64,000 nt of DNA from an uncultured Selenomonadales bacterium (GTDB lineage Bacteria > Bacillota > Negativicutes > Selenomonadales > Selenomonadaceae), in NCBI GenBank assembly GCA_946408355.1, contig CAMJRX010000005.1:11568-75567 (forward strand). Direction: 5' to 3'. Positions within the stretch are counted from its first letter, which is position 1. Each line of letters opens with the position of its first letter. Shown piece after piece: positions 26,594 to 40,471 of the stretch. Below the pieces are notes generated by a model. The model was not told the origin of the DNA. It did no database searches and was given only the letters and a program-made list of their open reading frames with translations. The position numbers and the translations under genes are program-made.

Positions 26594-26639
26594 AAATTTT
26601 AATCATTAGAATTCCAATTCGTTTATATAGGCTTTTGGT

Positions 26640-29282
26640 TCATTTAAATTTACCAGTAATACCTAGTACCTCAACACTGCGTTTATCTCCGCGCTCTGCT
26701 GCCGTCTGCCACCATTCTAGCGCACGAGAATAACATTTTAAATTCCAAAAAATTCCTCCGAGTTCGCTGACTGAATCATTATCGCCAAGACAACTTGCAT
26801 CTAGACAGCTTTCAATCGCCGCGTGAATATTTTTCAGCGTGCCTAAACCGTTCTGGTACATGTACGCCAAATATTTAATAGATTCGACATGCCCCATTGC
26901 CGCCGCACGAGAAAAACTATTCAAAGCATTTGCGTATTTCTTTTTGTTAAAAGCCGTCTTGCCTAAAGAGAAATCATCATTTGCAGTTGAATGTTTACGC
27001 GGCTTGCCAATTTTAGGAGGCAAAAATTTTTCCGCTGATAAATTATTTTGGGCATCATTATCCAAAGTTATATCGAGCAACTGATTTTTTCTTTCGAGCA
27101 TATCATCTAAAAAATTATCCGTAGAATTTTCCGAACTAAAAACTTTACTGCTTTGTTTAGGGCAAATTAATCGCCAATTATTATAAAAATTTTTCAATGC
27201 AGAGCTTATTTTTTCCATAACAACAAAATCTTGATTCAAGAAGTCAATTTTATTGTAAATATCCTCTGCATGTTGACGAAAAATATTCAAGCAAGATTCG
27301 CGCTGATTCCGGCAAAGTGTCGATACCTGCGTAAAATATTCAATCGTTGAGGCGAAAAACTTTTGTCGCAAATTTTTTTCTAGCGCGTTGATTTTATCTT
27401 TAAAAATTTCCTCTAAATGCTGTCGTAATTCTCTGCGAAATGTTCCTGCCAAATAAAAATTTTCAAGCAACTGTTTGCGATTCGCTTTGAAGAAATGCCA
27501 ATCTCCCTCTACTTCCTGCGTACAAAGGATTCGCGTACAACGTTTAACGAGTTCCGACAATTTATCGCGTGAAAAACTTTCTGATATTCCCACGTCGAAG
27601 GGCAACATGTTAATTTTTATTTCCGGCAAATTTACACCTAAACGGGACGCACTTGAAAATGTAGAGCAAACACAATCGATAAATTCTTTTGCTTGCGTTT
27701 TATGCTCGTCAATAATTTTTTTTGTCAGATTGATTAATTGTTTTGTCTGCTCGTTGTATTCGCTTTGCAACTGATTTTCCACAGTGGCGACGGAATTTTT
27801 AAGCTCCGTAGAAATTTTCCCTTGATACAAAAGGGGCATTTTTTCTGCAGAAAAGTCCTCGCTAGCAATTAATTCATCAAAAATATTGCTAACGACCGAA
27901 TTAATCGCCTGAATAAAATTATTTATCGCGTTGCTTACGTCATATATGAGAGCTTTAGCAACTGCATTTCCGCTAATAGTTTTTTCTTGCATTGCGATTA
28001 ACAAGATTTTTTCGCGAAAAATTTCAGCTTGATGAGCGTCGACAGAAAGTTTTTTCGTTTGAATCAGTCGCATATTTTTTAAAGTATCGTCATCAATAAA
28101 CGCAACGGCGCGTTCAACTTGTCTTAATAATTTTTCTGTTGTCGACGAATTTTTTTTGAGCGATTGACGAAGATAATTTTCAAGATACGGCACGCCAGTT
28201 TTTTGTAGGAGCGATTTGCTTGACGGATTAGGCAACGCCTCAAAAAATTTTTCAAGGAAATTTGTCGTAAAAAATTCCTCGCGACCGGTTAAGCCAAGAG
28301 CCTCCGTGATTTCAGCGACAGTAAGCCATTCATCGCCGCTTGTATAGACCGTCAAAAAAACTTCGGGCGCGTCGAGGAAAAATATTGGCGCGTCGTTAAA
28401 TCCGTTTGCGTCCAGAATTTTTGCAAAGTCAAAAAAGATTTTCGCGGAATTTATCGCCACTTCTTGTTCACGCACGGCAGGACAAATCAACACAAAAATA
28501 ATTTTATTTTTATCCGGCGCATCGGCAACGGTTGCTAAAAAATTTTCCGTCCGTGCAAAGTCATTGTTCAAAGCATTAACAGCGAAGACGCAAGCATTAC
28601 AATTCGGCAAATTTTTAGCGACTTCAGCGTCAGATAAAATTTCCGTATCAAAATTCAGCCGCTCAAAAATTTTCGCTAAATGCTCGTGTTCGCCTGTAAG
28701 GATTAGTTTTATTGGCTTGTTGAAACTTTGCAAATATTTTTCGAGTTTCTCCGTTGCCGATAAAAATTCTTTAACGTAAGAAATATTTTCCTGCAATTTT
28801 AATTCGTCTGTTTTATCCTGTAAATTTTTCACGCCGTCAAGTTCTTTAAGAAGGTTAGTTGCATTGTCCATTAACTTTTGCTCAACAGCGATTGCTGAAA
28901 ATTCTTCCTCTGAACAAATTTCAAGCGGCACTTGCAGAAATGAACATTGCCGTTTAACCGCGTTCGCCACGTCAATAAAACCTTGCGGCACTACTAAAAA
29001 ATTTTTCCCCGTCGCCATAAAGTTTTCGTCATATGAAATAGCGTCTAACGCGGCGGATAAAGTTTCAACCTCAAATTCCCCCGACGCAGAAATTAATTTC
29101 GCCGCGCAAGGAAATTTAATCTCTTGAGCAACGCGGGCAGAAATTTCCGCGTCAAAATCTGGTAACAGATAAATTTTATTCGGATTGGCGTTAATGTATG
29201 CAAGTATTTCAGCTTTGACTTCGCGCAAAAATTCTTCCGGAACGGCGACGCATTTTTTATTGCTCCAAGCCAAAAGATTCAT
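26640..29282 (-). CDS. Operon gene G: large protein with C-terminal Sel1/TPR-like repeats
   Basis: 880 aa. C-terminal AAAMGHVESIKYLAYMYQNGLGTLKN.. and ..WWQTAAERGD are Sel1-type repeats. The ATG overlaps the stop of gene F (ATGA). Confidence 0.75.
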   Translation of the reverse strand: MNLLAWSNKKCVAVPEEFLREVKAEILAYINANPNKIYLLPDFDAEISARVAQEIKFPCAAKLISASGEFEVETLSAALDAISYDENFMATGKNFLVVPQGFIDVANAVKRQCSFLQVPLEICSEEEFSAIAVEQKLMDNATNLLKELDGVKNLQDKTDELKLQENISYVKEFLSATEKLEKYLQSFNKPIKLILTGEHEHLAKIFERLNFDTEILSDAEVAKNLPNCNACVFAVNALNNDFARTENFLATVADAPDKNKIIFVLICPAVREQEVAINSAKIFFDFAKILDANGFNDAPIFFLDAPEVFLTVYTSGDEWLTVAEITEALGLTGREEFFTTNFLEKFFEALPNPSSKSLLQKTGVPYLENYLRQSLKKNSSTTEKLLRQVERAVAFIDDDTLKNMRLIQTKKLSVDAHQAEIFREKILLIAMQEKTISGNAVAKALIYDVSNAINNFIQAINSVVSNIFDELIASEDFSAEKMPLLYQGKISTELKNSVATVENQLQSEYNEQTKQLINLTKKIIDEHKTQAKEFIDCVCSTFSSASRLGVNLPEIKINMLPFDVGISESFSRDKLSELVKRCTRILCTQEVEGDWHFFKANRKQLLENFYLAGTFRRELRQHLEEIFKDKINALEKNLRQKFFASTIEYFTQVSTLCRNQRESCLNIFRQHAEDIYNKIDFLNQDFVVMEKISSALKNFYNNWRLICPKQSSKVFSSENSTDNFLDDMLERKNQLLDITLDNDAQNNLSAEKFLPPKIGKPRKHSTANDDFSLGKTAFNKKKYANALNSFSRAAAMGHVESIKYLAYMYQNGLGTLKNIHAAIESCLDASCLGDNDSVSELGGIFWNLKCYSRALEWWQTAAERGDKRSVEVLGITGKFK

Positions 29283-31942
29283 GCTACTCTCTCCAGCTTA
29301 TCGACGACTTTACGGACGCTCTCGACGATATTTTTCTTAGTTTGATTTTCAAGATTCCTTTGGTCAAGCCCTCTGAACTCGTCCTCTTTTACCTTGCGAA
29401 TATTATCGGTTATCCACTTGTCGAAAAGTTTTGCGCCGTCGGAAGTTTCCTCGTCCTTGCGAATTATGTTTATATTTTTCGTCATAACGGAAACAAACGC
29501 TTGCTCCAGCCCGATTGCGTAGATAATCGCCTCAAGCGTAAATTGCCGCAAGATTTCAATGTCCTCGTTCAATACACGCAACATATCGTCTTCGTTAGAA
29601 ATTTGCATTTGCCGACTTAACTCGTGCATTTTGCGCAATTTATCCACAGTCACCTTGCCCGAAAAACCGGATTTGTTCTTTGAATAAGTGTCGATTGTAT
29701 CGTTCAAGCGGTTAATGCGTTCATCTTTGCTTAAGTTCGACCAGTCGTTTTTATAAAAAGTCCCTTGAAGTTTACCTCTTAAATCGTTGGGAACTTCGTT
29801 AGCTTTAATGCCGGCGCGCAAAAGCATTTTCGCCCATTTACCCATAGGCAACAATTCAACGGCAAAAGATAGCCCCGCGCATATGGCGTCTTTATTGGCT
29901 TTGAAGAAATTTTCCAGACCGCTTTTAATCTCCGTGCTCGCCGAAACATTATCGTGCAAAAGAATTTTCGCAAAAAAATCTGTGTAACGATCTTCGCCGT
30001 CGCTGTGACTGACAACGGGGGAATTTTCATAGTAAGTCGCCAACGAAAGGAATTCCGGAAAAGATTTTTCACCTGTGACTTGCTGAAAACGTTCCGAAGA
30101 ACCGAACGGTCGCCAAATTAAAACTTCCAACAGCCGCGAAGTAAATCTTTCTACCAGCGAATTGAAGCGGCATTTATCAGCGTTCTTTATCCACAGCGAA
30201 TGGAATAATTCCGTAACGCTTTTGGTGAGTTCCTCTTTGTATTGAGAGTTATCCGGCATGCCCATTACTTCGAGGAATTTTGCAATGATTTTGTCGTAAA
30301 TTTCCTGTTCCTTTTTTTCGGTTGCTTCTGCCGTTCTTTGTACGAGGTTGCGCAAAAATTCCCGTTGCAATTCCTCGCGGAATTTTGCATCTATCGCGGT
30401 AAGCGGTAAAGGTCCACTGCCCTCAAGGTTTCCACTGCGTTTAATTTCCGCAAGCAGTTCAGAGTTCTCATCTTGATTGGGATAAAAAGTCTCGATATTA
30501 TCGCGAATCATTGAGCTAAAAGGTTCCTCTAAAAGGATTTGACTATTATACGATTTAGCAATGTCGTAAGCTTCTACTTTAAATTTTCTAAGATTCCGGA
30601 TTGCCTCTAAATAATATTCGCCGCCCGTCTCGATTGGTTGCCACTGCGCGGACTCATACTTCTTTAAAATGCCGTCCAAAAAATTTCTTGCGTCAGCGAT
30701 TGTGTTTTCTGCGCGGCGTTTCAAAACTTCAAAGCGGTCGTTGTTGTAATACTCCGTCATGCTCTCCCAAAGTTCAACGATACCATAAGCCATTCCCCAT
30801 GCGTCCATTTTGTCACGCGACGCCGTCGAACCTTTAAGTAATTCGTCGCTCGATTCAATGTCGTTACTTTCCAGATAAGCCTTCGCCGCCCCAACGAAAA
30901 TGTGATTGTCCTTTGCAATGCGATTTTCCACAGATTCTTTACGCAAAACGGCGGCATTTCTTTTAGCAATTTCAGAATTAGTTGCGCGGTCAATCTGATT
31001 ACCAAAAATAAATGCCTTGTCGCTCAACGGGATATTTTCTTCATCGCGACCGCTCCTCAATATGCCAAGTTGCGAACGATCCAAATTTGGATTTACGCCG
31101 ACATTAGTCACCAAAATTATCGCGTCCGCCTCGCGCAACATTTCCAAAGTCTGCTTTTCGTGCAATTCGGTTGGCGAATTAAAGCCTGGCACGTCGTAGA
31201 GAACGATATCTTTCATTGAGCCGAGATTCGCCGATTCAATTATGACTTTCTCAACGGCGTAAGGGTGCGCCGAACGTATCGCCGAACCGTCAGCATTTTT
31301 CCCAACTATGCCCGTTATAAATGTTTTGAATTCTTTGCTTTCGAGGTCGTCGCCGAAAAATTCTTGAGCCTTTTGACCGAGCAACCCGCGAATTATATTC
31401 CTGTCTTTCAACATAGTTTTAATATCTTCGGCGGTTTTGGTGTTATGCTTTTCGTACAAGTCGGGATTTTTATCCGCCATAGACTCCCACCACCTGCTGA
31501 AGGTAGACAAATCCAGCGTTTCAAAGTCAGCAGTTTGCGGATATTGAAGAACGTTTTTAAGCGTATCGGCGAAATTATTTTTGAATTGCTCCCTGTTGTA
31601 GAAAAAAATTTTACCGCAATCCTCGTTGCCCGCGCAGATTTTTGTAGTCGTGTAAGTGCAACGTTCCGTATACTCCGGCAAAATATTTCTTTTGAGAAGG
31701 GCATTACCGAGCGTACTTTTGCCCGCCTTCTCCAAACCGACGACAGCCACAGTAAATTCTCGCGTGCGCAACTTATTTAAAACTTTTTGATTGCGTTTTC
31801 TCAAGCGTTCCAATTCGATGCGCTCTTCGCCGAAGGGAATAACCATGCCGTTGGGGTCTTTTTGAATTATCTCATCAAAAATCCCGTCGGTTTCGTCCAA
31901 CTTCGTGATAAATTTTTGTTGCTCTTCGCTCAATGTACTCAA
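29279..31942 (-). CDS. Operon gene F: dynamin-like GTPase
   Basis: G1 VVGLEKAGKST, G3 LYDVPG, G4-like FGNQID, followed by long helical regions. TTG start 8 nt after AGGAGG. Confidence 0.8.
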   Translation of the reverse strand: MSTLSEEQQKFITKLDETDGIFDEIIQKDPNGMVIPFGEERIELERLRKRNQKVLNKLRTREFTVAVVGLEKAGKSTLGNALLKRNILPEYTERCTYTTTKICAGNEDCGKIFFYNREQFKNNFADTLKNVLQYPQTADFETLDLSTFSRWWESMADKNPDLYEKHNTKTAEDIKTMLKDRNIIRGLLGQKAQEFFGDDLESKEFKTFITGIVGKNADGSAIRSAHPYAVEKVIIESANLGSMKDIVLYDVPGFNSPTELHEKQTLEMLREADAIILVTNVGVNPNLDRSQLGILRSGRDEENIPLSDKAFIFGNQIDRATNSEIAKRNAAVLRKESVENRIAKDNHIFVGAAKAYLESNDIESSDELLKGSTASRDKMDAWGMAYGIVELWESMTEYYNNDRFEVLKRRAENTIADARNFLDGILKKYESAQWQPIETGGEYYLEAIRNLRKFKVEAYDIAKSYNSQILLEEPFSSMIRDNIETFYPNQDENSELLAEIKRSGNLEGSGPLPLTAIDAKFREELQREFLRNLVQRTAEATEKKEQEIYDKIIAKFLEVMGMPDNSQYKEELTKSVTELFHSLWIKNADKCRFNSLVERFTSRLLEVLIWRPFGSSERFQQVTGEKSFPEFLSLATYYENSPVVSHSDGEDRYTDFFAKILLHDNVSASTEIKSGLENFFKANKDAICAGLSFAVELLPMGKWAKMLLRAGIKANEVPNDLRGKLQGTFYKNDWSNLSKDERINRLNDTIDTYSKNKSGFSGKVTVDKLRKMHELSRQMQISNEDDMLRVLNEDIEILRQFTLEAIIYAIGLEQAFVSVMTKNINIIRKDEETSDGAKLFDKWITDNIRKVKEDEFRGLDQRNLENQTKKNIVESVRKVVDKLERVA

Positions 31943-31956
31943 GCCGATTACCTCCT

Positions 31957-32562
31957 TTAATTTGTATTATGTTTTTGACTTAATTCACGCCACGCCTCAG
32001 CAATATCTACGGAAGTTGCCGAATTTTTTTTACGGGCGGGCGACGGCGCAAATTTTTCTGGTTTAGGCGATTTAGAATTTAGATTATAATTTATCGGTAG
32101 AATTTTTTGCTTTTCTATTGAAGGATACGGCTTGTCGAGGGTGCCGATTAAAAATCTTTGCCCGCCTTCCGTCTTAACGCGGAGAATAGTGCTGTCGAGT
32201 GGTAATTTCAATTTCGACTGGAGCTGGCGGTCTGTAAACGAAAAAAATTTTTCTATATCCTCGTTCGTCCAAGTCGTCGGTGATACGGTTTGAACGTTGG
32301 CTGATTTCCCTGCGATGAAAAATTTTTCGACGTTAAAACCTTCGCGCCAAATAACACAAATATCTGTTGAATCTTCGGAGGTATGTCCGGTTTCTTGCTC
32401 CCATTGCCGCCAATAGTCTGCGGCGTTTGTGCCGTTTAAGTTATAAGTTTCGCCGCCGTGCAAGCGCAAAACAATAAAATTTTCGCGCTCAAAAGAATAA
32501 GTCTTAACAATTTGTTCGTCGAGACATTCGATTAAGTATTTGTAAATCGTCAAAGCCTTCAC
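31957..32562 (-). CDS. Operon gene E: hypothetical protein (201 aa)
   Basis: The GTG start overlaps the stop of gene D (GTGA). I recognise no domain. Confidence 0.6.
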   Translation of the reverse strand: MKALTIYKYLIECLDEQIVKTYSFERENFIVLRLHGGETYNLNGTNAADYWRQWEQETGHTSEDSTDICVIWREGFNVEKFFIAGKSANVQTVSPTTWTNEDIEKFFSFTDRQLQSKLKLPLDSTILRVKTEGGQRFLIGTLDKPYPSIEKQKILPINYNLNSKSPKPEKFAPSPARKKNSATSVDIAEAWRELSQKHNTN

Positions 32563-32963
32563 CTACCTTTTGTTTTTTTCTGAAGAAATTTTTGGTGCAA
32601 TTCGGCTTTCTTTTTTGCGAACGAGGATTTTCTTTCATAAAGATTTGTTTCAAGTACCATTTGTTCAGCTAAGATTCGCCGTGATTTTTCTTTTTGTTCC
32701 GCGAGGATTTTTTCGCCCTCTTTTGTCAAGCCGTCGGGGAAAGGAATTACGTCTAACTTTGTATCCGTCGGCGTCTTCAATGCTAAAAAGTCACGTTGAA
32801 TATTTTGCCGTTCCTGTTCAACTTCTTGACTGTCACGTTTTATTTTAGTTTCGAGGACGCTTATTTTTTTATCAAATTTTTTGACCGGCTCTTGGGATTC
32901 TCTCTCGAGAAATTGCATTGAGATAACTTTTTGCTGAATTTCTTTAAACTTGCCGCCGTTCAT
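32559..32963 (-). CDS. Operon gene D: highly charged coiled-coil protein (134 aa)
   Basis: The ATG overlaps the stop of gene C (ATGA). Lys/Glu/Gln-rich, heptad-like sequence. Confidence 0.6.
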   Translation of the reverse strand: MNGGKFKEIQQKVISMQFLERESQEPVKKFDKKISVLETKIKRDSQEVEQERQNIQRDFLALKTPTDTKLDVIPFPDGLTKEGEKILAEQKEKSRRILAEQMVLETNLYERKSSFAKKKAELHQKFLQKKTKGR

Positions 32964-33922
32964 GACGTAGCCTCAACTTTTGACGTATCTTTAAAGTCAA
33001 CGTCGTCCAAAATTTTTTCCGCGTCTTCGGGAAGTTCGCCATTCTGTCGTGCCTGCTGAAATTCCGCGCCGTATTCTTTTTGCAAATCATCTTTATAAAC
33101 GGACGCCAAAACTTTATCGTCGCTGTTAGAAACTTTGCGCATTTCGTTTAGCCGCGTAAGTAAATCCAGCTCGCTTTTTTCCGGAAAATAAAACTTCAAC
33201 GAATCCAAAAGCGCGGCGGTTATACGTTCCAATTCACCGGCGGGCAATGTTCCTTTTAAATATTCGCTGATGTTCAAATTTTTATAACCCAGCTCGTCGA
33301 ACGCCCGAATGAACGCTTGCACTTCCTTAACTTCCATTGCAGTGCGACCAATTTCAATCAGCGTCGTTTTCGGAATGCGCAAGCCAAATTTTTCTTCAAG
33401 CGCACTAACTTCCGCCTGCATACCTAAAACAGAATACATGCCAATATTTTTTTGCAGTTGAAGTGTATCGATTTCCTCTGCAGGAATTTGTTCCTTCAAA
33501 TAGGCGTAATACTCTTTAAACGACTTAAAATCATCGCGTTTTTTCCAGTCTTCGTGCTTGTCGGCTTCCTCTAAGCGATAACCGATTTCCTCTGGCTTTT
33601 CGTTTTTCTCGACGACTTCATTTTCCTCAGCGATTTTAGAAATTACTTTAACCACCAACTTAACGAGCAAATCAACGATTATCGGACCCAATATCGGTCC
33701 CAGAGGTCCTGTCATAATTCCGCTTAAACCTTTAAGAAGTCCAAACGCTTTACCCGCAATCGAACCTAAAAAACCAGAAATCGCTTTGCTCGCCAAATTT
33801 CCAATCGTGCTTATCGCTCCGGTTACTGCCGACGCAATGCCGCTTGCAATCCTGCCAATAGCACTTCCAACGCTACTAATAGCACTTCCGATGGCACTTC
33901 CAATAGAACTAAAAAATCCCAT
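32960..33922 (-). CDS. Operon gene C: protein with an N-terminal Gly/Ser/Ala/Ile-rich glycine-zipper membrane region and an acidic C-terminal domain
   Basis: The first roughly 100 aa read GFFSSIGSAIGSAISSVGSAIGRIASGIASAVTGAISTIGNLASKAISGFLGSIAGKAFGLLKGLSGIMTGPLGPILGPIIV. The ATG lies 1 nt after the stop of gene B, and its SD AAAGGAGGG sits inside the end of gene B. Confidence 0.7.
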   Translation of the reverse strand: MGFFSSIGSAIGSAISSVGSAIGRIASGIASAVTGAISTIGNLASKAISGFLGSIAGKAFGLLKGLSGIMTGPLGPILGPIIVDLLVKLVVKVISKIAEENEVVEKNEKPEEIGYRLEEADKHEDWKKRDDFKSFKEYYAYLKEQIPAEEIDTLQLQKNIGMYSVLGMQAEVSALEEKFGLRIPKTTLIEIGRTAMEVKEVQAFIRAFDELGYKNLNISEYLKGTLPAGELERITAALLDSLKFYFPEKSELDLLTRLNEMRKVSNSDDKVLASVYKDDLQKEYGAEFQQARQNGELPEDAEKILDDVDFKDTSKVEATS

Positions 33923-33923
33923 G

Positions 33924-36900
33924 CTAATTCCCTCCTTTTAAACGCAGAACACCCATAATTTCGCGCTGAATTTTTAAGAGTACCGAATCAAAATTATCAT
34001 CATCGGCTGATAAAATTTCTTCGACGACGCCGCAAAACTTTTCAAAAATTTTCTGATCATACGGCTCGTACAGATTGCAGAAAAGCCACGTTTGCCACAC
34101 ATCGCGCCCAACAGTTTTTTCAACGTGATTAACTTCGCGTTGGAAAGTTTTTAGCGCGTTTTCTGTTGTGTCATTGTCGAACAGGCTACGATATTTTTTC
34201 TTAAGCGAATAGCCGCCGCGCATAATCCAAAGATATTGGCGGATAATTTCTTTAGAAATTTCTGCAGGGAAATGTTCAATGCCGCGCAGAACGCCGCTTG
34301 CAATAACTTTCGGCTCGGTGTAATAGTTTTCGGCAATGTCGCGAATTTCTTCCGGCTCAATTTCCCGTTGCTCCGTCGTAGATACTTCCTGTTTAATTTT
34401 GACTTGCATAGCTTTAACTTGTCCTTGCGAAAAAATAATCGCCCTGCCCGTCGGAAGTTTAGACAAAAAAGTTTTCTGTTCGTCGGAAAGGGCAATCGTA
34501 TCGCCTATTGCGTCTTTATCGTCGCGGGCAAATAATTTGTGCACAATTTTTGTATTCGTATTCTTTAAAACTTCGGGCGTCATCTTGTCGGGAATTTGAT
34601 CGACAATAATCAACGACTCGCCATATTTGCGAACCTCCGCTAACATGTCGGAAAAAACTTCGACGCCCTGTTTTTTATTCATGCTATCGCCTGGAACGTA
34701 TCGGCTTAACAATCTGTGCGCCTCTTCTATCAACGTAATGTGTTGGAAGGCGGGATTTTTTCTGTGACGATATTGCACCGCTTGCAAAAGATTTGTAAGT
34801 ATAAATCCCATGAGCAAAGATTTTTCCGAGCCGTTTTTAATCTCTTCGAGTTCGATAACAACTTTGCGCTCAACTAAATCAAAAAAATTTATCGAACGCG
34901 CCGTATCAAACATCATGCCTTTCGCGCCGACTAAAAGGCTTTCTATTCGCGCCTTCAATGAACCCATATATTCATCTTGCAGACGTTCGCCGAAGCCCTC
35001 TTCCTTTGTAACTTTTTTTACTGCCTCCCAAAAATCAGACATTGTCGGGAAAGGATAAACTCCCGCGTCGAAAGGATTTTGCGGTTCGTCGTTGCCGTTA
35101 ATTGTTGGTCGCCATTCGTTTGTGCGAATATCCCAGCCCTTTTCCTCATAAGCGCGATAAACTCCCGTCTCCAAAATTTGCGGGATCGCCGCCTCCATGT
35201 CAAAGGACGCCTCTAACGTCGCCTTAATCATGTCAGCGCGTCCGGTTATCGCCTCGCCAGGAAATAATTCAAATGGATTCAAGAAAAACGGCGCGATATT
35301 TTGTTTGCCCGGCGTAAAGAAAATTAATTCGGGGCAACGTTCTTTCAATATGCGATATTCAGTCTTCGCCGGCTCAATTACCAAAAACGGCAACCCGCTG
35401 TTAATCAAAATGTTTTGGCAAGTCGTAGTTTTGCCGCTCCCAGTCACGCCCGTAATAAAAGTATGTTTGTTGAGGTCGCGCCTGTCCAAAGACACGGGCA
35501 AATTGCGTTCGGTGCCGTCTTGTACTAAATTTCCGAGCGGCAATTTATATTCGTCAGCGACGGGCTTAAAGTTCAAACCAAATTCAACTTCCTCGCGCAA
35601 GGCAAGACCAGGAATTTCTTTTTTGGGCAACGCCGCGATAACGCTCAATTCCTCTACCGAAAACCAATTCCCGCACCAGCCAACGCGATTTCCTGTCCAA
35701 CTCGAAAGTATTGCCGAATATTTTTTTTCGTTAGGCTCAAGGAACGAGGGAATTTGCATATTTTGCAGAGCGTGCAAACAACCAGCCTCCGACTTTGAAA
35801 ACTCGTGGAAACTCAACGGTCGCCGATTGCCTTTCGTGCCACTGTAAAGTGAAATTGCTGTATTGGCGAGGCGGTGGAGCATTGCCGGTTGCGCCGCGAA
35901 AAGATACGCACAACATAAAAAAAGCCCCTTGCCTCTGCCACAATCGAGGCGCGGAAATAAAATTTCGTCGATATATTTAATCCACTGCGCGGCGGTTTTA
36001 GTGTCAACTTCCATTTGCTCAACTTGCGCCGTGTTGCTTGACGTGGATTCTGTGGTCGCGTTCGTTTTATTTTCTATTGTCGTCGACGAAATATTTTCCG
36101 ACGAACTTTGACTTGCGCTTTCGCTGTTCTGCGTACTTTTGCTCGTGTTGTCAGTCGAGGAAACTTGATAGCCGAAAACATACGACGTTTGATTTTGTGC
36201 GGAATAATTTGCGCCTGAAGAAATTCCGCCGCTTTGCTCCTTTGATTTGTTTTCGTCCTCCGACTTCTTGACGACGTTATTATTATCTTTTTCCGTAACA
36301 AGATTTTTATTGTTGGCGTTACGTTCACTGCTATTAGAACTGCTACTTATGCTGTGCTGTCTACCGGAAGTTTGCCCCGCCGTTGCCTGTTGCTGATTGG
36401 AAATATTTTTTTGCTCGCTTTGACTTGTCGTTTCGATTTTGTTGCTTGAAGAATTTTTACTTTCCTGCGTCGATTCGGTTATTTGCGTGCCGTTGCTGGT
36501 GTTTACACTTGAATTATTAGCCGTTCCCGTTGACTTCGTGCGCTGAAAAGAATGACGAGCAATCGGCGACAGCGCGTCGGCAATCTCAATCAGCACATCT
36601 TCCAATTTGTTAACTTCCGCGCCAACCAACGGACGAGCTATAACCATAAATCCGAATTCATCGCCCGCCATAACGTTAATCAATCTGTCCACGCCTTGAA
36701 AATTTTCGTTGTCTTTCTCGGTGCCTGGTACGCCCGTCAAAATCCCCGCGCAGGAAATATTTTTCAAGCGTTTTATAACTTCGCGTTTATCTGCGTTAGT
36801 CAGCTCGCGAATTTGACAGCCGCGAAAATTTCCTTGAATACTCGGTTTAAGCAAGTCGCCGCCGATTGTAGGCGCAGAAAGATTTTCCGCTTTTTCGTGT

Positions 36901-37205
36901 GCAAAATCTTTCGCTATCCCAAAATAAAATTTAACGTCCTGCCCACTGCCCAATATCAAATAAATAAAACTCATGCCCTCAAGGTCGCGAAAAGTGCTCA
37001 AAACATTTTCCATAGCCTCGCGACGCGGTGCCTTCTCCTCAAATGTCAATTCCTCAATCTGAAAGAAACAACATTCGCGCAAAATAATTTCTCGCTCCGT
37101 GCCTAGCCATTCGCGCTCACGAATAAAAAAATTTCCCTTCGCAACGTCAGAAAGCCCGCTAACTACCGCTTGACCATTTTTTATTGCCTCGTCTATCTCC
37201 CGCAT
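33924..37205 (-). CDS. Operon gene B: HerA/FtsK-superfamily P-loop ATPase with a long low-complexity insert
   Basis: Walker A HTFITGVTGSGKTT (about 35425-35455). Walker B-like HITLIEEAHRLL. Ser/Asn/Thr/Gln-rich segment at about 36020-36540. SD AAGGGGA before the ATG. Confidence 0.8.
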   Translation of the reverse strand: MREIDEAIKNGQAVVSGLSDVAKGNFFIREREWLGTEREIILRECCFFQIEELTFEEKAPRREAMENVLSTFRDLEGMSFIYLILGSGQDVKFYFGIAKDFAHEKAENLSAPTIGGDLLKPSIQGNFRGCQIRELTNADKREVIKRLKNISCAGILTGVPGTEKDNENFQGVDRLINVMAGDEFGFMVIARPLVGAEVNKLEDVLIEIADALSPIARHSFQRTKSTGTANNSSVNTSNGTQITESTQESKNSSSNKIETTSQSEQKNISNQQQATAGQTSGRQHSISSSSNSSERNANNKNLVTEKDNNNVVKKSEDENKSKEQSGGISSGANYSAQNQTSYVFGYQVSSTDNTSKSTQNSESASQSSSENISSTTIENKTNATTESTSSNTAQVEQMEVDTKTAAQWIKYIDEILFPRLDCGRGKGLFLCCAYLFAAQPAMLHRLANTAISLYSGTKGNRRPLSFHEFSKSEAGCLHALQNMQIPSFLEPNEKKYSAILSSWTGNRVGWCGNWFSVEELSVIAALPKKEIPGLALREEVEFGLNFKPVADEYKLPLGNLVQDGTERNLPVSLDRRDLNKHTFITGVTGSGKTTTCQNILINSGLPFLVIEPAKTEYRILKERCPELIFFTPGKQNIAPFFLNPFELFPGEAITGRADMIKATLEASFDMEAAIPQILETGVYRAYEEKGWDIRTNEWRPTINGNDEPQNPFDAGVYPFPTMSDFWEAVKKVTKEEGFGERLQDEYMGSLKARIESLLVGAKGMMFDTARSINFFDLVERKVVIELEEIKNGSEKSLLMGFILTNLLQAVQYRHRKNPAFQHITLIEEAHRLLSRYVPGDSMNKKQGVEVFSDMLAEVRKYGESLIIVDQIPDKMTPEVLKNTNTKIVHKLFARDDKDAIGDTIALSDEQKTFLSKLPTGRAIIFSQGQVKAMQVKIKQEVSTTEQREIEPEEIRDIAENYYTEPKVIASGVLRGIEHFPAEISKEIIRQYLWIMRGGYSLKKKYRSLFDNDTTENALKTFQREVNHVEKTVGRDVWQTWLFCNLYEPYDQKIFEKFCGVVEEILSADDDNFDSVLLKIQREIMGVLRLKGGN

Positions 37206-37216
37206 TGTTTTTCCCC

Positions 37217-37380
37217 TTTAAATTCGATTTCATCGGGCGAAATTAAATAAAAACACTCGCGCAAAATAATTTCTCGTTCGCGAACAAAAAATTTTATCTT
37301 TAAATTCGACTTCATAAGGCAAATTAAAGAAATATCACTCGCGCAAAATAATTTCTCGCTCGCGAACAAAAAATTTTATC
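37217..37380. repeat. Two tandem 82-bp repeat units in the gene A - gene B intergenic region
   Basis: Units 37217-37298 and 37299-37380 are roughly 88-90% identical by eye. They contain copies of sequence from both flanking genes; see findings. Confidence 0.85.
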
Positions 37381-37408
37381 TTTATGTCTACTGCATTGTT
37401 TTTAAACT

Positions 37409-40405
37409 TTAATTAGGAAACTTTTTTGTATAAATTTTCCCGTCAAAGTCTTCGCTCTCAAAATCTTCCGCTCTTCCAACCGCATATTCGATTTCATCGG
37501 GCGAAATTTTCCTTATATATACAGAAATATCCCTGTCGCGGCTGACTTCAGCCTTGTCGAGGCTACAACGAACTACGTTTACTTCATTTCTTTTTAAATT
37601 TCCGCTAATCGCTACTGCCTCTTCCGTAAAATAAATCTCAAACTTCCGCGCATTGGCATAAGTAAACCTCGTCCACTGATTATACGGTATGTCAAGCTTA
37701 ATTTTGACTTGAAAACAGTCGTTAGCGTCAATTTGCCCCAAATAAAACTTAAACGGAGCTTCTTCTTCCGCGCCACCGATAATTTCAACATCACTGCCGC
37801 CCTCGCGACTGCGCAAAAGCCCAAATGCTACTCCAGTTTTGCCCGTGCGAAGTCTTTCGTAGTTTTGATTCGTTTCTTGCTCGGTTTCGTCGGCGTCATG
37901 TACTTCTGCGGCTCTTTTTTCTGCCTCGTCGGGATCAAATCCAAGAGGCATGTGCAATACAAAAATATTTGAGACGTTTTTATCCTCTCCGGTGTTGCGC
38001 GAAATGATTTCCTCAAGTTTTTGTTCGTTCTCACGGATTTTTTCCTCAAAAAGATTCCGCACGATTGTAGATTTACAAGAATTGCCCGCTAAAAGAATGT
38101 GAATCGGTAAAACTTCAGGCTTTTTAAACGCGCCAAGCAAAGCCTCAAAGAAATTATCGACGCCACGACGAATTCTTTCTTTTAAACACTCTTCAAGCCG
38201 TTGTCTGTTCAATTTTAACTCGACAGGAATAATTTTGTCTTCCGTTTGAGAATAAAGCTTTAATTTTTGCGGCGTATCAAAAAGTTCGTTGCTCTCTTCG
38301 ATATTTTCTTCCCAAAACGGTCTCAAAAGCTCCGCAATACGTTTTCTATTGACATAAGCCTCTTTTGTCTTGAGAATTATCGTTTGTGCACCGTCGACAG
38401 CAATACATTCATAAGGCAACGCAAAGGGAATTTGTTTTTCGCGCATAGTCGACAGATTATTTTTATAAACTTCGTAAGCGATAAGGTTTAAAAGGTTTTC
38501 GCCGCCTAAATATGGGTCGCCGCGTCCAGTATTTGTATATTGTTCTATCACAAACTTGGAAAATCCGTCTACAGGAACACTTTCGACGCCAAAATCAAAA
38601 TCAGTGGTGCCTCCGCCGAAATCGAACACCGCATAAGCAGTTTTTTCGCCAGCTTTAGGTTGTAATTTCAATTCGCCAAGCGCACAACTCGCATAAGCAG
38701 CCGGTTCACTCGCTCCAGCGTAAATAATAAAGTCTTCCATTAACTCTTCGTCGTTTAAAATCGAGGGAGGTAGCGATTTTTTAATTCCGCGCTCAAAACT
38801 TTGCAGAATTTTTTCGCGAACAGCCTTTTCATACGTCACCGGAAACGAAAACATATACTCAAGGCAAATTCCATTGTGCATATTGTTAATATAAAGCCCT
38901 AAATAATAAGCGTAAAGCTCAATCGGGTCAAAATCATCATCTTCAAGTTGCAAATACGGATTAAGCTCAACTAAATTCTTTTTTCTGTCCTGCAAATACA
39001 TGCGCAAATCTTTATCGTTAGCCCATTGTTTTAATTCGCCGAATACCGAATAAAAAACCGAACTATCTATGCTGGTATCCTTTTCCGCGTCATTTAAAAC
39101 TGCGGCGGCGGTGTGCGAAAACGTTGCATCGTCCCATTGCGTGAAAGGTCGACCGTCACGAGATAAATATGCCGCCTTAAATGATTCATAATCGCGCAAT
39201 TCTATGACTGTCGGGTTCTCATAATCTTTTTTTTCGGGTGCTTTGGCATAATTGCCCTCGCCAATTCGCAAAAGTTTTTCGTCAGTGCCAACTTGACGCA
39301 CTACAACCGTTGCTTTCGTGCCAAAATCAATCGCAACTATGCCGTCGGTAACGTCCATTTGCGGAGGACGTCCAAAAAATGGCTCGTTTTCCGGTAATTC
39401 TATAATTTCTGCGTCTTGTGGCGGTTCCTCGAAAAGTTCCCAATGTCCGATTTTCGGATCTGTCAAAATTTTAACGTCGTAAGGATGAATATTCGCCCGA
39501 ATGTAATCGCATTGACAAAGCTCCTCGCGAACTTGATTAATCGGATTTTGTACGTCATCTTTTTTGGCTTTAACGTTCGGCAAATCATTTTTACTTTTGC
39601 CAAAACCTTTTGCGACAAGATTTTCAAAATCAATTATGCCGCGTTCAGCCTCGCGATTAAATAAATTAAAATCAAGCGTCAACTTCCGCGTAATCATTCG
39701 CACGTAGCGTTGAATATGCGGGAAAATGTTCATCAAAAAAATATAAGCCTTCTTAGCTTGCGGCGATAAACCTTCAGGAACCAATTCATTCGTCAGCCAA
39801 GCATTTACTGTTTTGCCGTATTGCGCGTTTGTAGAATTTACTCCGGTCAATCTGAAAATCGGCACCATTGTAATTTTGTCGGAGTCCGAATAAATATTTA
39901 TTTGCCCGCTGGAGGTTACACAATAAGATTTACTGCCTTTCCAACCCGAAACTAAAATAATTTTCTTGAGGGCCGTAGGAAAATATTTAAAATTGCCGTC
40001 CTCGTCCAAATATGGATTTTCCATACCGACGATAAAACTTTTCAAGCATTCTTCAGGCGTCATGGGCGTAAAAGTAAAGCCTTCAAACGACCAACCCGAA
40101 TAATTGTAAAGCGGACGACCAACCGTCGCAAAACTCGGAAGTTCAACCGCCTCGAAACGCGGAAAAATACCACCTGTCGCTCTGTCGAACCAAACTTTTT
40201 TATTTTCCATCATCACGTAAGGCGCATCTTTGAATTTTTCAAGCTCGTCGATTGCAAACGTAACGTAAGCTTCAAATTCGTCCAGAGAAATGCTTTTTTT
40301 CGCAGAAGTTTTTGGCGTGCTGTCAATATTTTTTAAATTGCCCCGCAAAGCTACTTCATAACAAGGGCACGTGCGGTCTTTTGCTCTAGTGTCTATTATT
40401 CCCAT
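37409..40405 (-). CDS. Operon gene A: giant Hsp70/actin-fold (DnaK-like NBD) ATPase with novel N- and C-terminal regions
   Basis: DGIVAIDFGTKATVV (phosphate-1, about 39318-39347). AVFDFGGGTTDFDF (phosphate-2, about 38603-38632). HILLAGNSCKSTIV (adenosine motif). ATG 40405 follows AAGGAGAG; the track start at 40453 lacks an SD. Confidence 0.8.
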   Translation of the reverse strand: MGIIDTRAKDRTCPCYEVALRGNLKNIDSTPKTSAKKSISLDEFEAYVTFAIDELEKFKDAPYVMMENKKVWFDRATGGIFPRFEAVELPSFATVGRPLYNYSGWSFEGFTFTPMTPEECLKSFIVGMENPYLDEDGNFKYFPTALKKIILVSGWKGSKSYCVTSSGQINIYSDSDKITMVPIFRLTGVNSTNAQYGKTVNAWLTNELVPEGLSPQAKKAYIFLMNIFPHIQRYVRMITRKLTLDFNLFNREAERGIIDFENLVAKGFGKSKNDLPNVKAKKDDVQNPINQVREELCQCDYIRANIHPYDVKILTDPKIGHWELFEEPPQDAEIIELPENEPFFGRPPQMDVTDGIVAIDFGTKATVVVRQVGTDEKLLRIGEGNYAKAPEKKDYENPTVIELRDYESFKAAYLSRDGRPFTQWDDATFSHTAAAVLNDAEKDTSIDSSVFYSVFGELKQWANDKDLRMYLQDRKKNLVELNPYLQLEDDDFDPIELYAYYLGLYINNMHNGICLEYMFSFPVTYEKAVREKILQSFERGIKKSLPPSILNDEELMEDFIIYAGASEPAAYASCALGELKLQPKAGEKTAYAVFDFGGGTTDFDFGVESVPVDGFSKFVIEQYTNTGRGDPYLGGENLLNLIAYEVYKNNLSTMREKQIPFALPYECIAVDGAQTIILKTKEAYVNRKRIAELLRPFWEENIEESNELFDTPQKLKLYSQTEDKIIPVELKLNRQRLEECLKERIRRGVDNFFEALLGAFKKPEVLPIHILLAGNSCKSTIVRNLFEEKIRENEQKLEEIISRNTGEDKNVSNIFVLHMPLGFDPDEAEKRAAEVHDADETEQETNQNYERLRTGKTGVAFGLLRSREGGSDVEIIGGAEEEAPFKFYLGQIDANDCFQVKIKLDIPYNQWTRFTYANARKFEIYFTEEAVAISGNLKRNEVNVVRCSLDKAEVSRDRDISVYIRKISPDEIEYAVGRAEDFESEDFDGKIYTKKFPN

Positions 40406-40442
40406 TAAATTCTCTCCTTTATAATGAATTTTCTCGAAACAA

Positions 40443-40471
40443 AGTATACGCAAATACTATCCATAAGTCAA
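40443..40471 (-). promoter_or_regulatory. Promoter of the seven-gene operon
   Basis: On the minus strand: TTGACT (40471-40466), a 17-nt spacer, TATACT (40448-40443). Confidence 0.5.

Follow-up and report, generated by a model that had tools for sequence, protein, structure and literature searches.

A glycine-zipper protein coupled to a HerA-type ATPase is the candidate membrane-acting output of an apparently undescribed bacterial conflict system

What does a protein with a glycine-rich and almost charge-free N terminus do beside a large HerA-type ATPase? The question is raised by a 64,000-nucleotide stretch of DNA (hereafter the window) from an uncultured Selenomonadales bacterium (assembly GCA_946408355.1, contig CAMJRX010000005.1, positions 11,568 to 75,567), in which positions 32960–33922 of the minus strand encode a glycine-zipper protein that we call GZ as a working name. 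An earlier note, made from the sequence of the window, had described this protein as a membrane protein and as the candidate effector of its operon. The existence of a GZ family, its residue pattern, its coupling to the ATPase, its genomic context and the homology of its position to that of toxins are all supported directly by the comparisons reported here. In our view, GZ is the component most likely to kill or to form a channel in a bacterial conflict system that is so far undescribed. More specifically, we give a probability of about 0.45 to a reading in which a HerA-type ATPase machine has GZ as its membrane-acting output, that is, a pore former that would be loaded by the ATPase and would insert conditionally.

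The gene and its product are divided as follows.

32960..33922 (−): GZ protein, 320 residues, comprising a glycine-zipper head, a hinge helix and an acidic all-α domain (open reading frame, translation, homologues and AlphaFold2 model)
33713..33922 (−): GZ residues 1–70, conserved N-terminal tip (MGFFSSIGSAIS) and charge-poor, heptad-patterned Gly/Ser/Ala/Ile zipper
33623..33712 (−): GZ residues 71–100, near-invariant G-P-L-G-P-I-L-G-P hinge and amphipathic helix with Lys at 88, 92 and 96
32963..33622 (−): GZ residues 101–320, acidic all-α domain, which may dock on the ATPase

Translation and composition bear out the reading frame, the N terminus quoted in the earlier note and the small or hydrophobic character of the first ∼100 residues. 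Residues 1–100 contain 17 Gly, 16 Ile, 15 Ser, 12 Ala, 10 Leu, 7 Val and 6 Lys, and seven basic and three acidic side chains give them a net charge of +4. The domain of ∼220 residues that follows (101–320) is acidic as described, with a net charge of −16. Twenty-six [GAS]xxx[GAS] pairs occur in residues 1–100, of which six are strict GxxxG; read from the sequence, these form a consecutive run (G53-G57-G61-G65) and the further pairs G8-G12, G19-G23 and G75-G79. GZ therefore has the GxxxGxxxG arrangement, consecutive repeats on one helix face, by which the transmembrane glycine-zipper motif is defined. The reiterated DNA motifs noticed earlier in this region are real but modest (a 28-nucleotide unit present three times at 33852–33912, 71–75% identical) and merely mirror the GSAIG-type peptide repeat that they encode.

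The junction with the upstream ATPase gene is equally as the earlier note had it, with the GZ start codon one nucleotide after the ATPase stop codon and a Shine-Dalgarno sequence inside the ATPase gene. It reads AGGAGG-gaattagc-ATG, with an 8-nucleotide spacer. The stop codon TAG lies one nucleotide ahead of the GZ ATG, and this order of AGGAGG and TAG places the ribosome-binding site of GZ within the ATPase gene. The tight coupling proposed on these grounds is upheld by the junction itself and by the adjacency of the two genes in 28 of 29 loci. At its other end, the GZ stop codon overlaps the start codon of the next gene, which encodes a 134-residue protein, as ATGA.

Sequence comparison places GZ in a large unnamed protein family. 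A word-indexed search returned 106 homologue clusters. A profile search of 1.84 billion representatives (clusters at 50% identity) returned 809 proteins at E ≤ 1e-3, 529 at E ≤ 1e-10 and 147 at E ≤ 1e-30; most of the 809 are 220–320 residues long and align from profile position 1. The start MG was found in 85 of the 138 newly returned family representatives examined (IDs P0107 onward), and most retain the head. No Pfam domain is recorded for any of the 106 clusters, and the 320 residues of GZ gave no match at E ≤ 0.01 in Pfam-A (hmmscan), NCBIfam or PADLOC, the Pfam families Gly-zipper_Omp, Gly-zipper_YMGG, Rick_17kDa_Anti and Bacteriocin_IIc included. A sequence search of the PDB gave chance-level matches only. 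No match was obtained when phage and plasmid collections were searched with GZ by tblastn; the plasmid copies described below were found only via the ATPase. The head showed weak matches to glycine-rich segments of tape-measure proteins in PHROG (E 2.5e-6 to 1.8e-3), a likeness that we take as compositional resemblance only.

An alignment of 70 homologues was used to identify the conserved features. M1 and G2 are 99% conserved, and the best-kept portion of the head is the tip, MG[FLW][FL]S..IGSxIS. Bulky hydrophobic residues in the head are spaced by three and four (positions 11, 15, 18, 22, 25, 29, 33, 40, 43, 51, 55, 62, 66 and 69) and nearly all other positions are Gly, Ser, Ala, Cys or Thr, so that an a/d-type hydrophobic pattern with small residues elsewhere is kept throughout. 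Charged residues are almost missing up to about position 57. The hinge at 72–80 is near-invariant (G72, 96%; L74, 88%; P76, 89%; G79, 91%) and is followed by the helix with lysines at 88, 92 and 96. In the acidic domain, Y138 is invariant and E111, G114, A120, F132, Y141, L142, G167, E200 and P247 are nearly so. The ratio of nonsynonymous to synonymous substitution rates (dN/dS) between close orthologues is 0.13–0.43 in the head, ≤0.11 in the hinge helix and 0.07–0.09 in the C-terminal domain; all three parts are under purifying selection. The head evolves faster yet remains under purifying selection, which points to constraint on its pattern or composition rather than on its exact sequence.

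The tip also occurs outside full-length GZ. Short open reading frames of 61–85 residues (L006:9722-9979, L064:11079-11315 and L029:5729-5914; L numbers denote loci), which we call mini-GZ, lie between the ATPase gene, or the gene of an Hsp70-like protein, and GZ. They carry a GZ-type MGFFSSI.. tip followed by a polar acidic tail, and those of Acinetobacter also retain the YxxYxAEIKNF..D motif from the C-terminal domain of GZ. By sequence, mini-GZ look like truncated GZ paralogues, and they may be functional. The sharing of the tip means that it has a function of its own and does not settle the choice among the readings weighed below. An amyloid-signaling motif, suggested by the presence of the tip in adjacent genes, was set aside because mini-GZ resemble truncated paralogues with part of the C-terminal domain. 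Eukaryote-type N-myristoylation of the MGxxxS sequence, with its conserved Ser at position 5, was also dropped; we know of no bacterial N-myristoyltransferase.

An AlphaFold2 model of GZ, based on the 70-sequence alignment, is a single compact body (mean predicted local distance difference test, pLDDT, 89.6; predicted template modeling score, pTM, 0.87). Residues 1–20 are unstructured and are followed by helices at 21–46, 51–70 and 75–100 and then by a twelve-helix acidic domain; residues 71–100 are modeled at pLDDT 93–98. Foldseek searches of the PDB and BFVD with the model gave nothing below E 1, and colicin-like, Bcl-2-like and holin-like folds were not recovered. As modeled, the acidic all-α domain has no recognized fold. 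No homology to a structural membrane-anchor family, for which the earlier note had allowed, was found in Pfam, NCBIfam, the PDB or the fold search.

The designation "membrane protein" is not borne out by transmembrane prediction or by the compact model. Insertion energies were calculated as a position-independent Hessa sum for the best 19 consecutive residues. GZ gave +5.0 kcal/mol, compared with −4.45 kcal/mol for an FtsW-like control encoded in the same window and about +6.6 kcal/mol for the soluble neighbors of GZ. The family median is +3.5 kcal/mol, with 18 of 244 members at ≤1 kcal/mol, and the Kyte-Doolittle maximum is 2.07 in GZ and up to 2.6 among homologues. With a head that is only marginally hydrophobic, GZ does not qualify as a classical integral membrane protein, and two states agree with the data: a zipper that inserts conditionally, or a soluble bundle whose surface is unusually bare. 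A head that is too polar for a translocon-type transmembrane helix suits conditional rather than constitutive insertion, and the N terminus of VacA is a zipper of this conditionally inserting kind. We consider that the charge-free, glycine/serine-rich head probably inserts into the membrane.

GZ is found with two large NTPases, which together with it form the conserved core of the operon.

33924..37205 (−): HerA/FtsK-like ATPase, 1093 residues, with a Ser/Asn/Thr/Gln-rich insert
37409..40453 (−): giant Hsp70-fold ATPase, 1014 residues, first gene of the operon, with phosphate-1 and phosphate-2 motifs and weak DnaK matches

The HerA/FtsK-like ATPase matches PADLOC mad8 (5.6e-27) and, over residues 780–940, HerA models (1.3e-17 and weaker), the latter matches being partial and below threshold. 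Pfam DUF87 scored below cutoff and the match to NCBIfam CedD is partial; among PDB chains, those of HerA/DUF87 are closest in sequence to the ATPase domain. Its insert is encoded at 36020–36540.

In 28 of the 29 loci for which upstream DNA was available, GZ directly follows an ATPase of this type (790–1145 residues); in two Acinetobacter loci a mini-GZ peptide intervenes between the two. Only L029 departs from this: GZ is preceded there by an Hsp70-like gene and a 61-residue mini-GZ, and the contig then ends. Hosts of the pair include rumen Selenomonadaceae, Quinella, Selenomonas, Megasphaera, gut metagenomes, Acinetobacter radioresistens and plasmids of Acinetobacter piscicola and Photobacterium damselae. 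Most loci have one or two giant Hsp70-fold ATPases in the same operon, and in long-type loci GZ is followed by a small charged helical protein and a member of the 201-residue protein family described below. Occurrence is patchy: within the bacterial family, 25 of 262 genomes and 8 of 40 genera are positive, and in a phylum-wide sample the ATPase is present in 9 of 401 genomes. Neighboring genes encode a WYL regulator, HEPN, resolvase and type III restriction-modification proteins in Acinetobacter and DEAD/HD, Mrr and SocA/Panacea proteins elsewhere, neighborhoods that are typical of mobile or defense regions. Some rumen Selenomonadaceae copies (L050, L051, L061 and L062) are decayed, with a split ATPase gene or a dynamin gene in five to seven pieces, which suggests frequent loss of function. 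Patchy distribution, copies on islands and plasmids, defense-gene neighbors and decayed copies are signals that point to a conflict system.

In three loci, the pair lies within CoCoNuT-like operons. In L017 it follows McrB-like and DUF2357 genes, the ATPase gene is followed by tandem full-length GZ paralogues of 315 and 294 residues (L017:9576-11420), and the locus sits on an integrative element that carries genes for a MobA/MobL relaxase, a topoisomerase and a Mutator-family transposase. In L024 the pair precedes VWA-PP2C-kinase-SF1 helicase genes. On the Photobacterium damselae plasmid it follows a gene for a 1247-residue DUF2357 protein, and the neighboring 213-residue protein scores 3.3e-23 against the GZ profile. 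A relationship between the DUF2357 protein of L017 and the Hsp70-like protein of the window was considered and dropped, as pairwise similarity was nil. Judged by gene arrangement, the pair in these operons appears to correspond to the third Type III-A extension of Bell et al. (PMC11090510). This CoCoNuT Type III-A "EccE3-HerA" cassette likewise combines an FtsK/HerA-family ATPase and a small helical protein in one operon, and CoCoNuT systems also contain Hsp70-like domains, as do GZ loci (Bell et al., 2024, eLife, PMC11090510). The authors suggested secretion or mobilization for the similar ATPase cassette, did not analyze the small helical partner and did not describe its glycine-zipper head; their "Gly_zip" label refers to a different protein, beside a SpoVK ATPase. 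The window differs from CoCoNuT in that McrBC, McrB-like GTPase, DUF2357, TerY-P, HEPN and CARF were not found in it (Pfam, PADLOC) and in that ATPase and GZ are accompanied by free-standing giant Hsp70-like and dynamin-like proteins.

The most informative comparison is with a sister clade of ATPases, 31–33% identical to that of the window over residues 300–950. Their cassettes have the same polar insert, dynamin-like GTPases as partners and an output protein encoded downstream, as in the window; two of them (L043 and L044) also encode a small transmembrane protein upstream of the ATPase. The gene directly 3′ of the ATPase gene varies among the four cassettes. In one it encodes a Colicin-DNase/WHH nuclease (2.6e-28; WHH, 8.1e-16) followed by a SUKH protein (1.1e-25), in another an LHH nuclease (7.3e-22) followed by a SUKH protein (1.8e-14), and in the remaining two an HNH protein and a transglutaminase-like protein. 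The arrangement of a variable toxin with a cognate-type immunity protein, as in polymorphic toxin-immunity systems, is thus found in two of these cassettes. The output is an HNH-fold nuclease or a transglutaminase-like protein there and GZ in the window, where immunity is not recognized. No Hsp70-like protein matching that of the window was detected in the sister cassettes, and we found no published description of them.

GZ occupies the position of the variable toxin in the sister clade, which supports the effector idea; this homology of position, deduced from gene order, is the strongest comparative support for GZ as an effector. A docking domain common to GZ and these toxins is unsupported (best E 0.034 for the GZ profile against the N-terminal parts of the toxins). 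Two sister ATPases (L043:4286-7552 and L044:1225-4401), both from cassettes with nuclease toxins, contain a glycine-zipper hydrophobic hairpin within their Ser/Thr-rich insert (e.g., ...APIGMGIGAIIGSIVAPGIGTAAGAAIGGAIGG...). None of the eight full-length GZ-paired ATPases examined has such a hairpin, and the polar insert is kept in all of them; a clear cis hairpin was likewise not seen in the sister ATPases L045 and L046. The zipper is thus present in cis in two sister ATPases and perhaps supplied in trans by GZ.

As a side observation, the LHH nuclease and SUKH genes are followed at L045:12169-13452 by three paralogous proteins of 131–143 residues with signal-peptide-like N termini (..CCVGCMCFFAG..) and no Pfam match.

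If GZ is loaded by the ATPase and forms pores, the following course of events can be envisaged. The acidic α domain would dock on the ATPase hexamer, by analogy with Sir2-HerA and DUF4297-HerA, and in the resting state the head would be folded back on the protein or chaperoned, keeping GZ soluble. Sensor NTPases (Hsp70-like and here also dynamin-like) would register an invader and cause the ATPase to fire. At least six heads would be released next to one another and, inserting post-translationally, would form an oligomeric glycine-zipper pore in the cytoplasmic membrane, collapsing the membrane potential and aborting the infection. The 134- and 201-residue proteins encoded downstream may act as safety or adaptor factors. 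Docking, triggering, membrane insertion and lethality are steps that, we stress, we infer.

The status of GZ as candidate effector, as the earlier note had it, is supported by its position 3′ of the ATPase and by the lack of any other recognizable toxic domain in the operon (none in the other genes by Pfam, PADLOC and NCBIfam). It is strengthened by the toxin position in the sister clade and weakened by the failure of GZ to be swapped and by the cis zipper of sister ATPases. The occurrence of tandem GZ copies and of mini-GZ peptides with a common tip favors an ATPase-loaded pore former; several observations weigh against it. No segment of the head scores as a classical transmembrane helix by the Hessa sum, and the compact model (pTM 0.87) would be equally compatible with a purely soluble helical bundle. 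No immunity-like protein was recognized downstream, where the 134- and 201-residue proteins match no Pfam or NCBIfam immunity family. Copies embedded in CoCoNuT-like operons are already accompanied by further effectors, HEPN among them. No other effector ever takes the place of GZ in its own ATPase clade; in this constancy it resembles a core machine part and differs from the toxins of the sister clade, which are swappable. The presence of a cis hairpin in sister ATPases and its absence from those paired with GZ imply that the zipper may be a tether or channel.

The last two observations also speak for the main rival role, less likely in our view, in which GZ is a non-toxic structural subunit whose zipper tethers an otherwise soluble ATPase hexamer at the membrane or forms the lining of a conduit through which a cargo, DNA or protein, passes. 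GZ would then do in trans what the hairpin of the L043 and L044 ATPases does in cis (compare VirB3/VirB4 and GspL/GspE), and both its constancy and the persistence of the ATPase-GZ unit in CoCoNuT-like operons that have effectors of their own would be accounted for, as would the secretion or mobilization idea of Bell et al. (2024; PMC11090510). Such a role would, however, leave the window operon without a recognizable effector or cargo. The head is not a stable transmembrane anchor by the Hessa sum, the L045 and L046 ATPases have no clear cis hairpin either, and GZ stands in the toxin position, whereas the small membrane adaptor of the sister cassettes is encoded upstream of the ATPase. The compact model and the positive insertion energy would also suit a GZ that never contacts a membrane, a soluble regulator or adaptor whose small-residue helices pack tightly against other proteins and whose tip, better conserved than the rest of the head and common to the 61–85-residue mini-GZ, is a handle that the Hsp70-like ATPase recognizes or that is threaded into the pore of HerA. 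This is improbable: ∼57 consecutive near-chargeless residues would be very unusual for a soluble surface, and many homologues are clearly hydrophobic by the Kyte-Doolittle and Hessa measures given above. Quite improbable, too, is an exported, bacteriocin-like membrane toxin aimed at rival bacteria, with the ATPase as export motor and the 134- or 201-residue protein as immunity factor. Glycine zippers are common in class II bacteriocins, the WHH/LHH nuclease and SUKH gene pairs of the sister cassettes resemble polymorphic toxin loci, the downstream genes are tightly coupled, and GZ is duplicated in tandem in L017. Yet neither a signal peptide nor a double-glycine leader is present in GZ, no outer-membrane component is seen in the operon of these diderm hosts, and the neighborhoods are of the defense rather than the secretion type. 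The downstream proteins also contain no hydrophobic segment (best segments +17.8 and +12.5 kcal/mol), unlike the usual immunity proteins against pore formers.

Among known systems, Sir2-HerA and DUF4297-HerA are the closest in logic. In both, the effector assembles on the HerA hexamer; the window likewise has a HerA-type ATPase adjoining its partner (one-nucleotide gap) in a defense-island context. GZ differs in having no enzymatic domain and a new fold, with no Sir2 or DUF4297 match in Pfam, PADLOC or the fold search, and the window ATPase is twice as long as HerA of those systems, with an N-terminal extension and a 170-residue polar insert. GxxxG runs, marginal hydrophobicity and an N-terminal location are shared with the VacA N terminus, class II bacteriocins and tape-measure proteins. 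By Pfam and NCBIfam, these belong to no common sequence family with GZ, which differs in its heptad-like pattern, its 220-residue cytoplasmic-type domain and its ATPase partner. The obligate HerA-type ATPase partner, the new helical domain and the heptad-type zipper set GZ apart from known glycine-zipper membrane-active proteins. The GTPase-tubulin-Hsp70 systems of Kaur et al. (2020) are distinct from the GZ system. Literature searches found no description of an Hsp70, HerA and glycine-zipper system, and the system appears undescribed apart from the passing note of Bell et al. (PMC11090510).

If GZ is indeed an ATPase-loaded pore former, it would represent a new effector type for HerA-based immunity; to our knowledge, enzymes are the only effectors known there so far. 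A function would be provided for a family of at least 800 sequence clusters that match no Pfam, NCBIfam or PADLOC model. The cassette attached to CoCoNuT systems that was left uninterpreted by Bell et al. (2024; PMC11090510) would be explained and linked with a wider set of Hsp70/dynamin/HerA operons, found repeatedly in genomes from the rumen, the gut and Acinetobacter and on plasmids. Through the contrast between cis and trans zippers, the way in which these motors engage the membrane becomes directly accessible to experiment. A more far-reaching scheme, doubtful as a whole, would have a HerA-type hexamer, gated by Hsp70-like (and dynamin-like) NTPases, hold at least six folded-back GZ molecules and template their simultaneous insertion as a pore on alarm. 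The same motor family, with the zipper in its own loop, would handle swappable nuclease toxins in the sister cassettes, and the two would jointly constitute an undescribed, phylum-spanning class of ATPase-driven toxin-deployment machines, serving defense or a new export route.

The operon comprises seven co-directional genes bracketed by a promoter-like site at 40471–40443 and a terminator-like site at 26600–26570. The four genes downstream of GZ are as follows.

32559..32963 (−): 134-residue charged helical protein, overlapping the GZ stop codon
31957..32562 (−): 201-residue protein of a conserved family (BLAST links, alignment; AlphaFold2 pLDDT 79)
29279..31942 (−): dynamin-like GTPase, 887 residues (Dynamin_N 1.5e-14, Pfam; LeoBC 3.7e-11, PADLOC)
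26640..29282 (−): second, degenerate dynamin-like protein with a Sel1/TPR tail, 880 residues (LeoBC 1.2e-5; Sel1 below cutoff)

A small protein is encoded at the position after GZ in long-type loci and in two of the CoCoNuT-like loci (L017 and L024), although homology across these groups is weak. The model of the 201-residue protein shows a confident β-α domain (residues 1–150), followed by a Pro-rich linker that is disordered and by a short C-terminal helix that is conserved. A SUKH-like identity was rejected after a Pfam scan and a fold search gave no support. The fold search returned only non-significant RNase H/ASKHA-like matches (YeaZ, EpsL and terminase nuclease, E ≥ 0.04), so the protein is not a recognizable immunity protein. 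The dynamin pair, whose second gene is the last before the terminator-like hairpin, is accessory and occurs only in the four loci closest to the window; its resemblance to LeoBC of the Eleos/Leo (LeoA, LeoBC) system is partial only, at the scores given above. The sole long intergenic space in the operon (203 base pairs, 37206–37408) separates the Hsp70-like and ATPase genes. In the metagenomic locus L029 (1293–3467), a RelA/SpoT-type small alarmone synthetase and a 279-residue coiled-coil protein precede the Hsp70-like gene and GZ.

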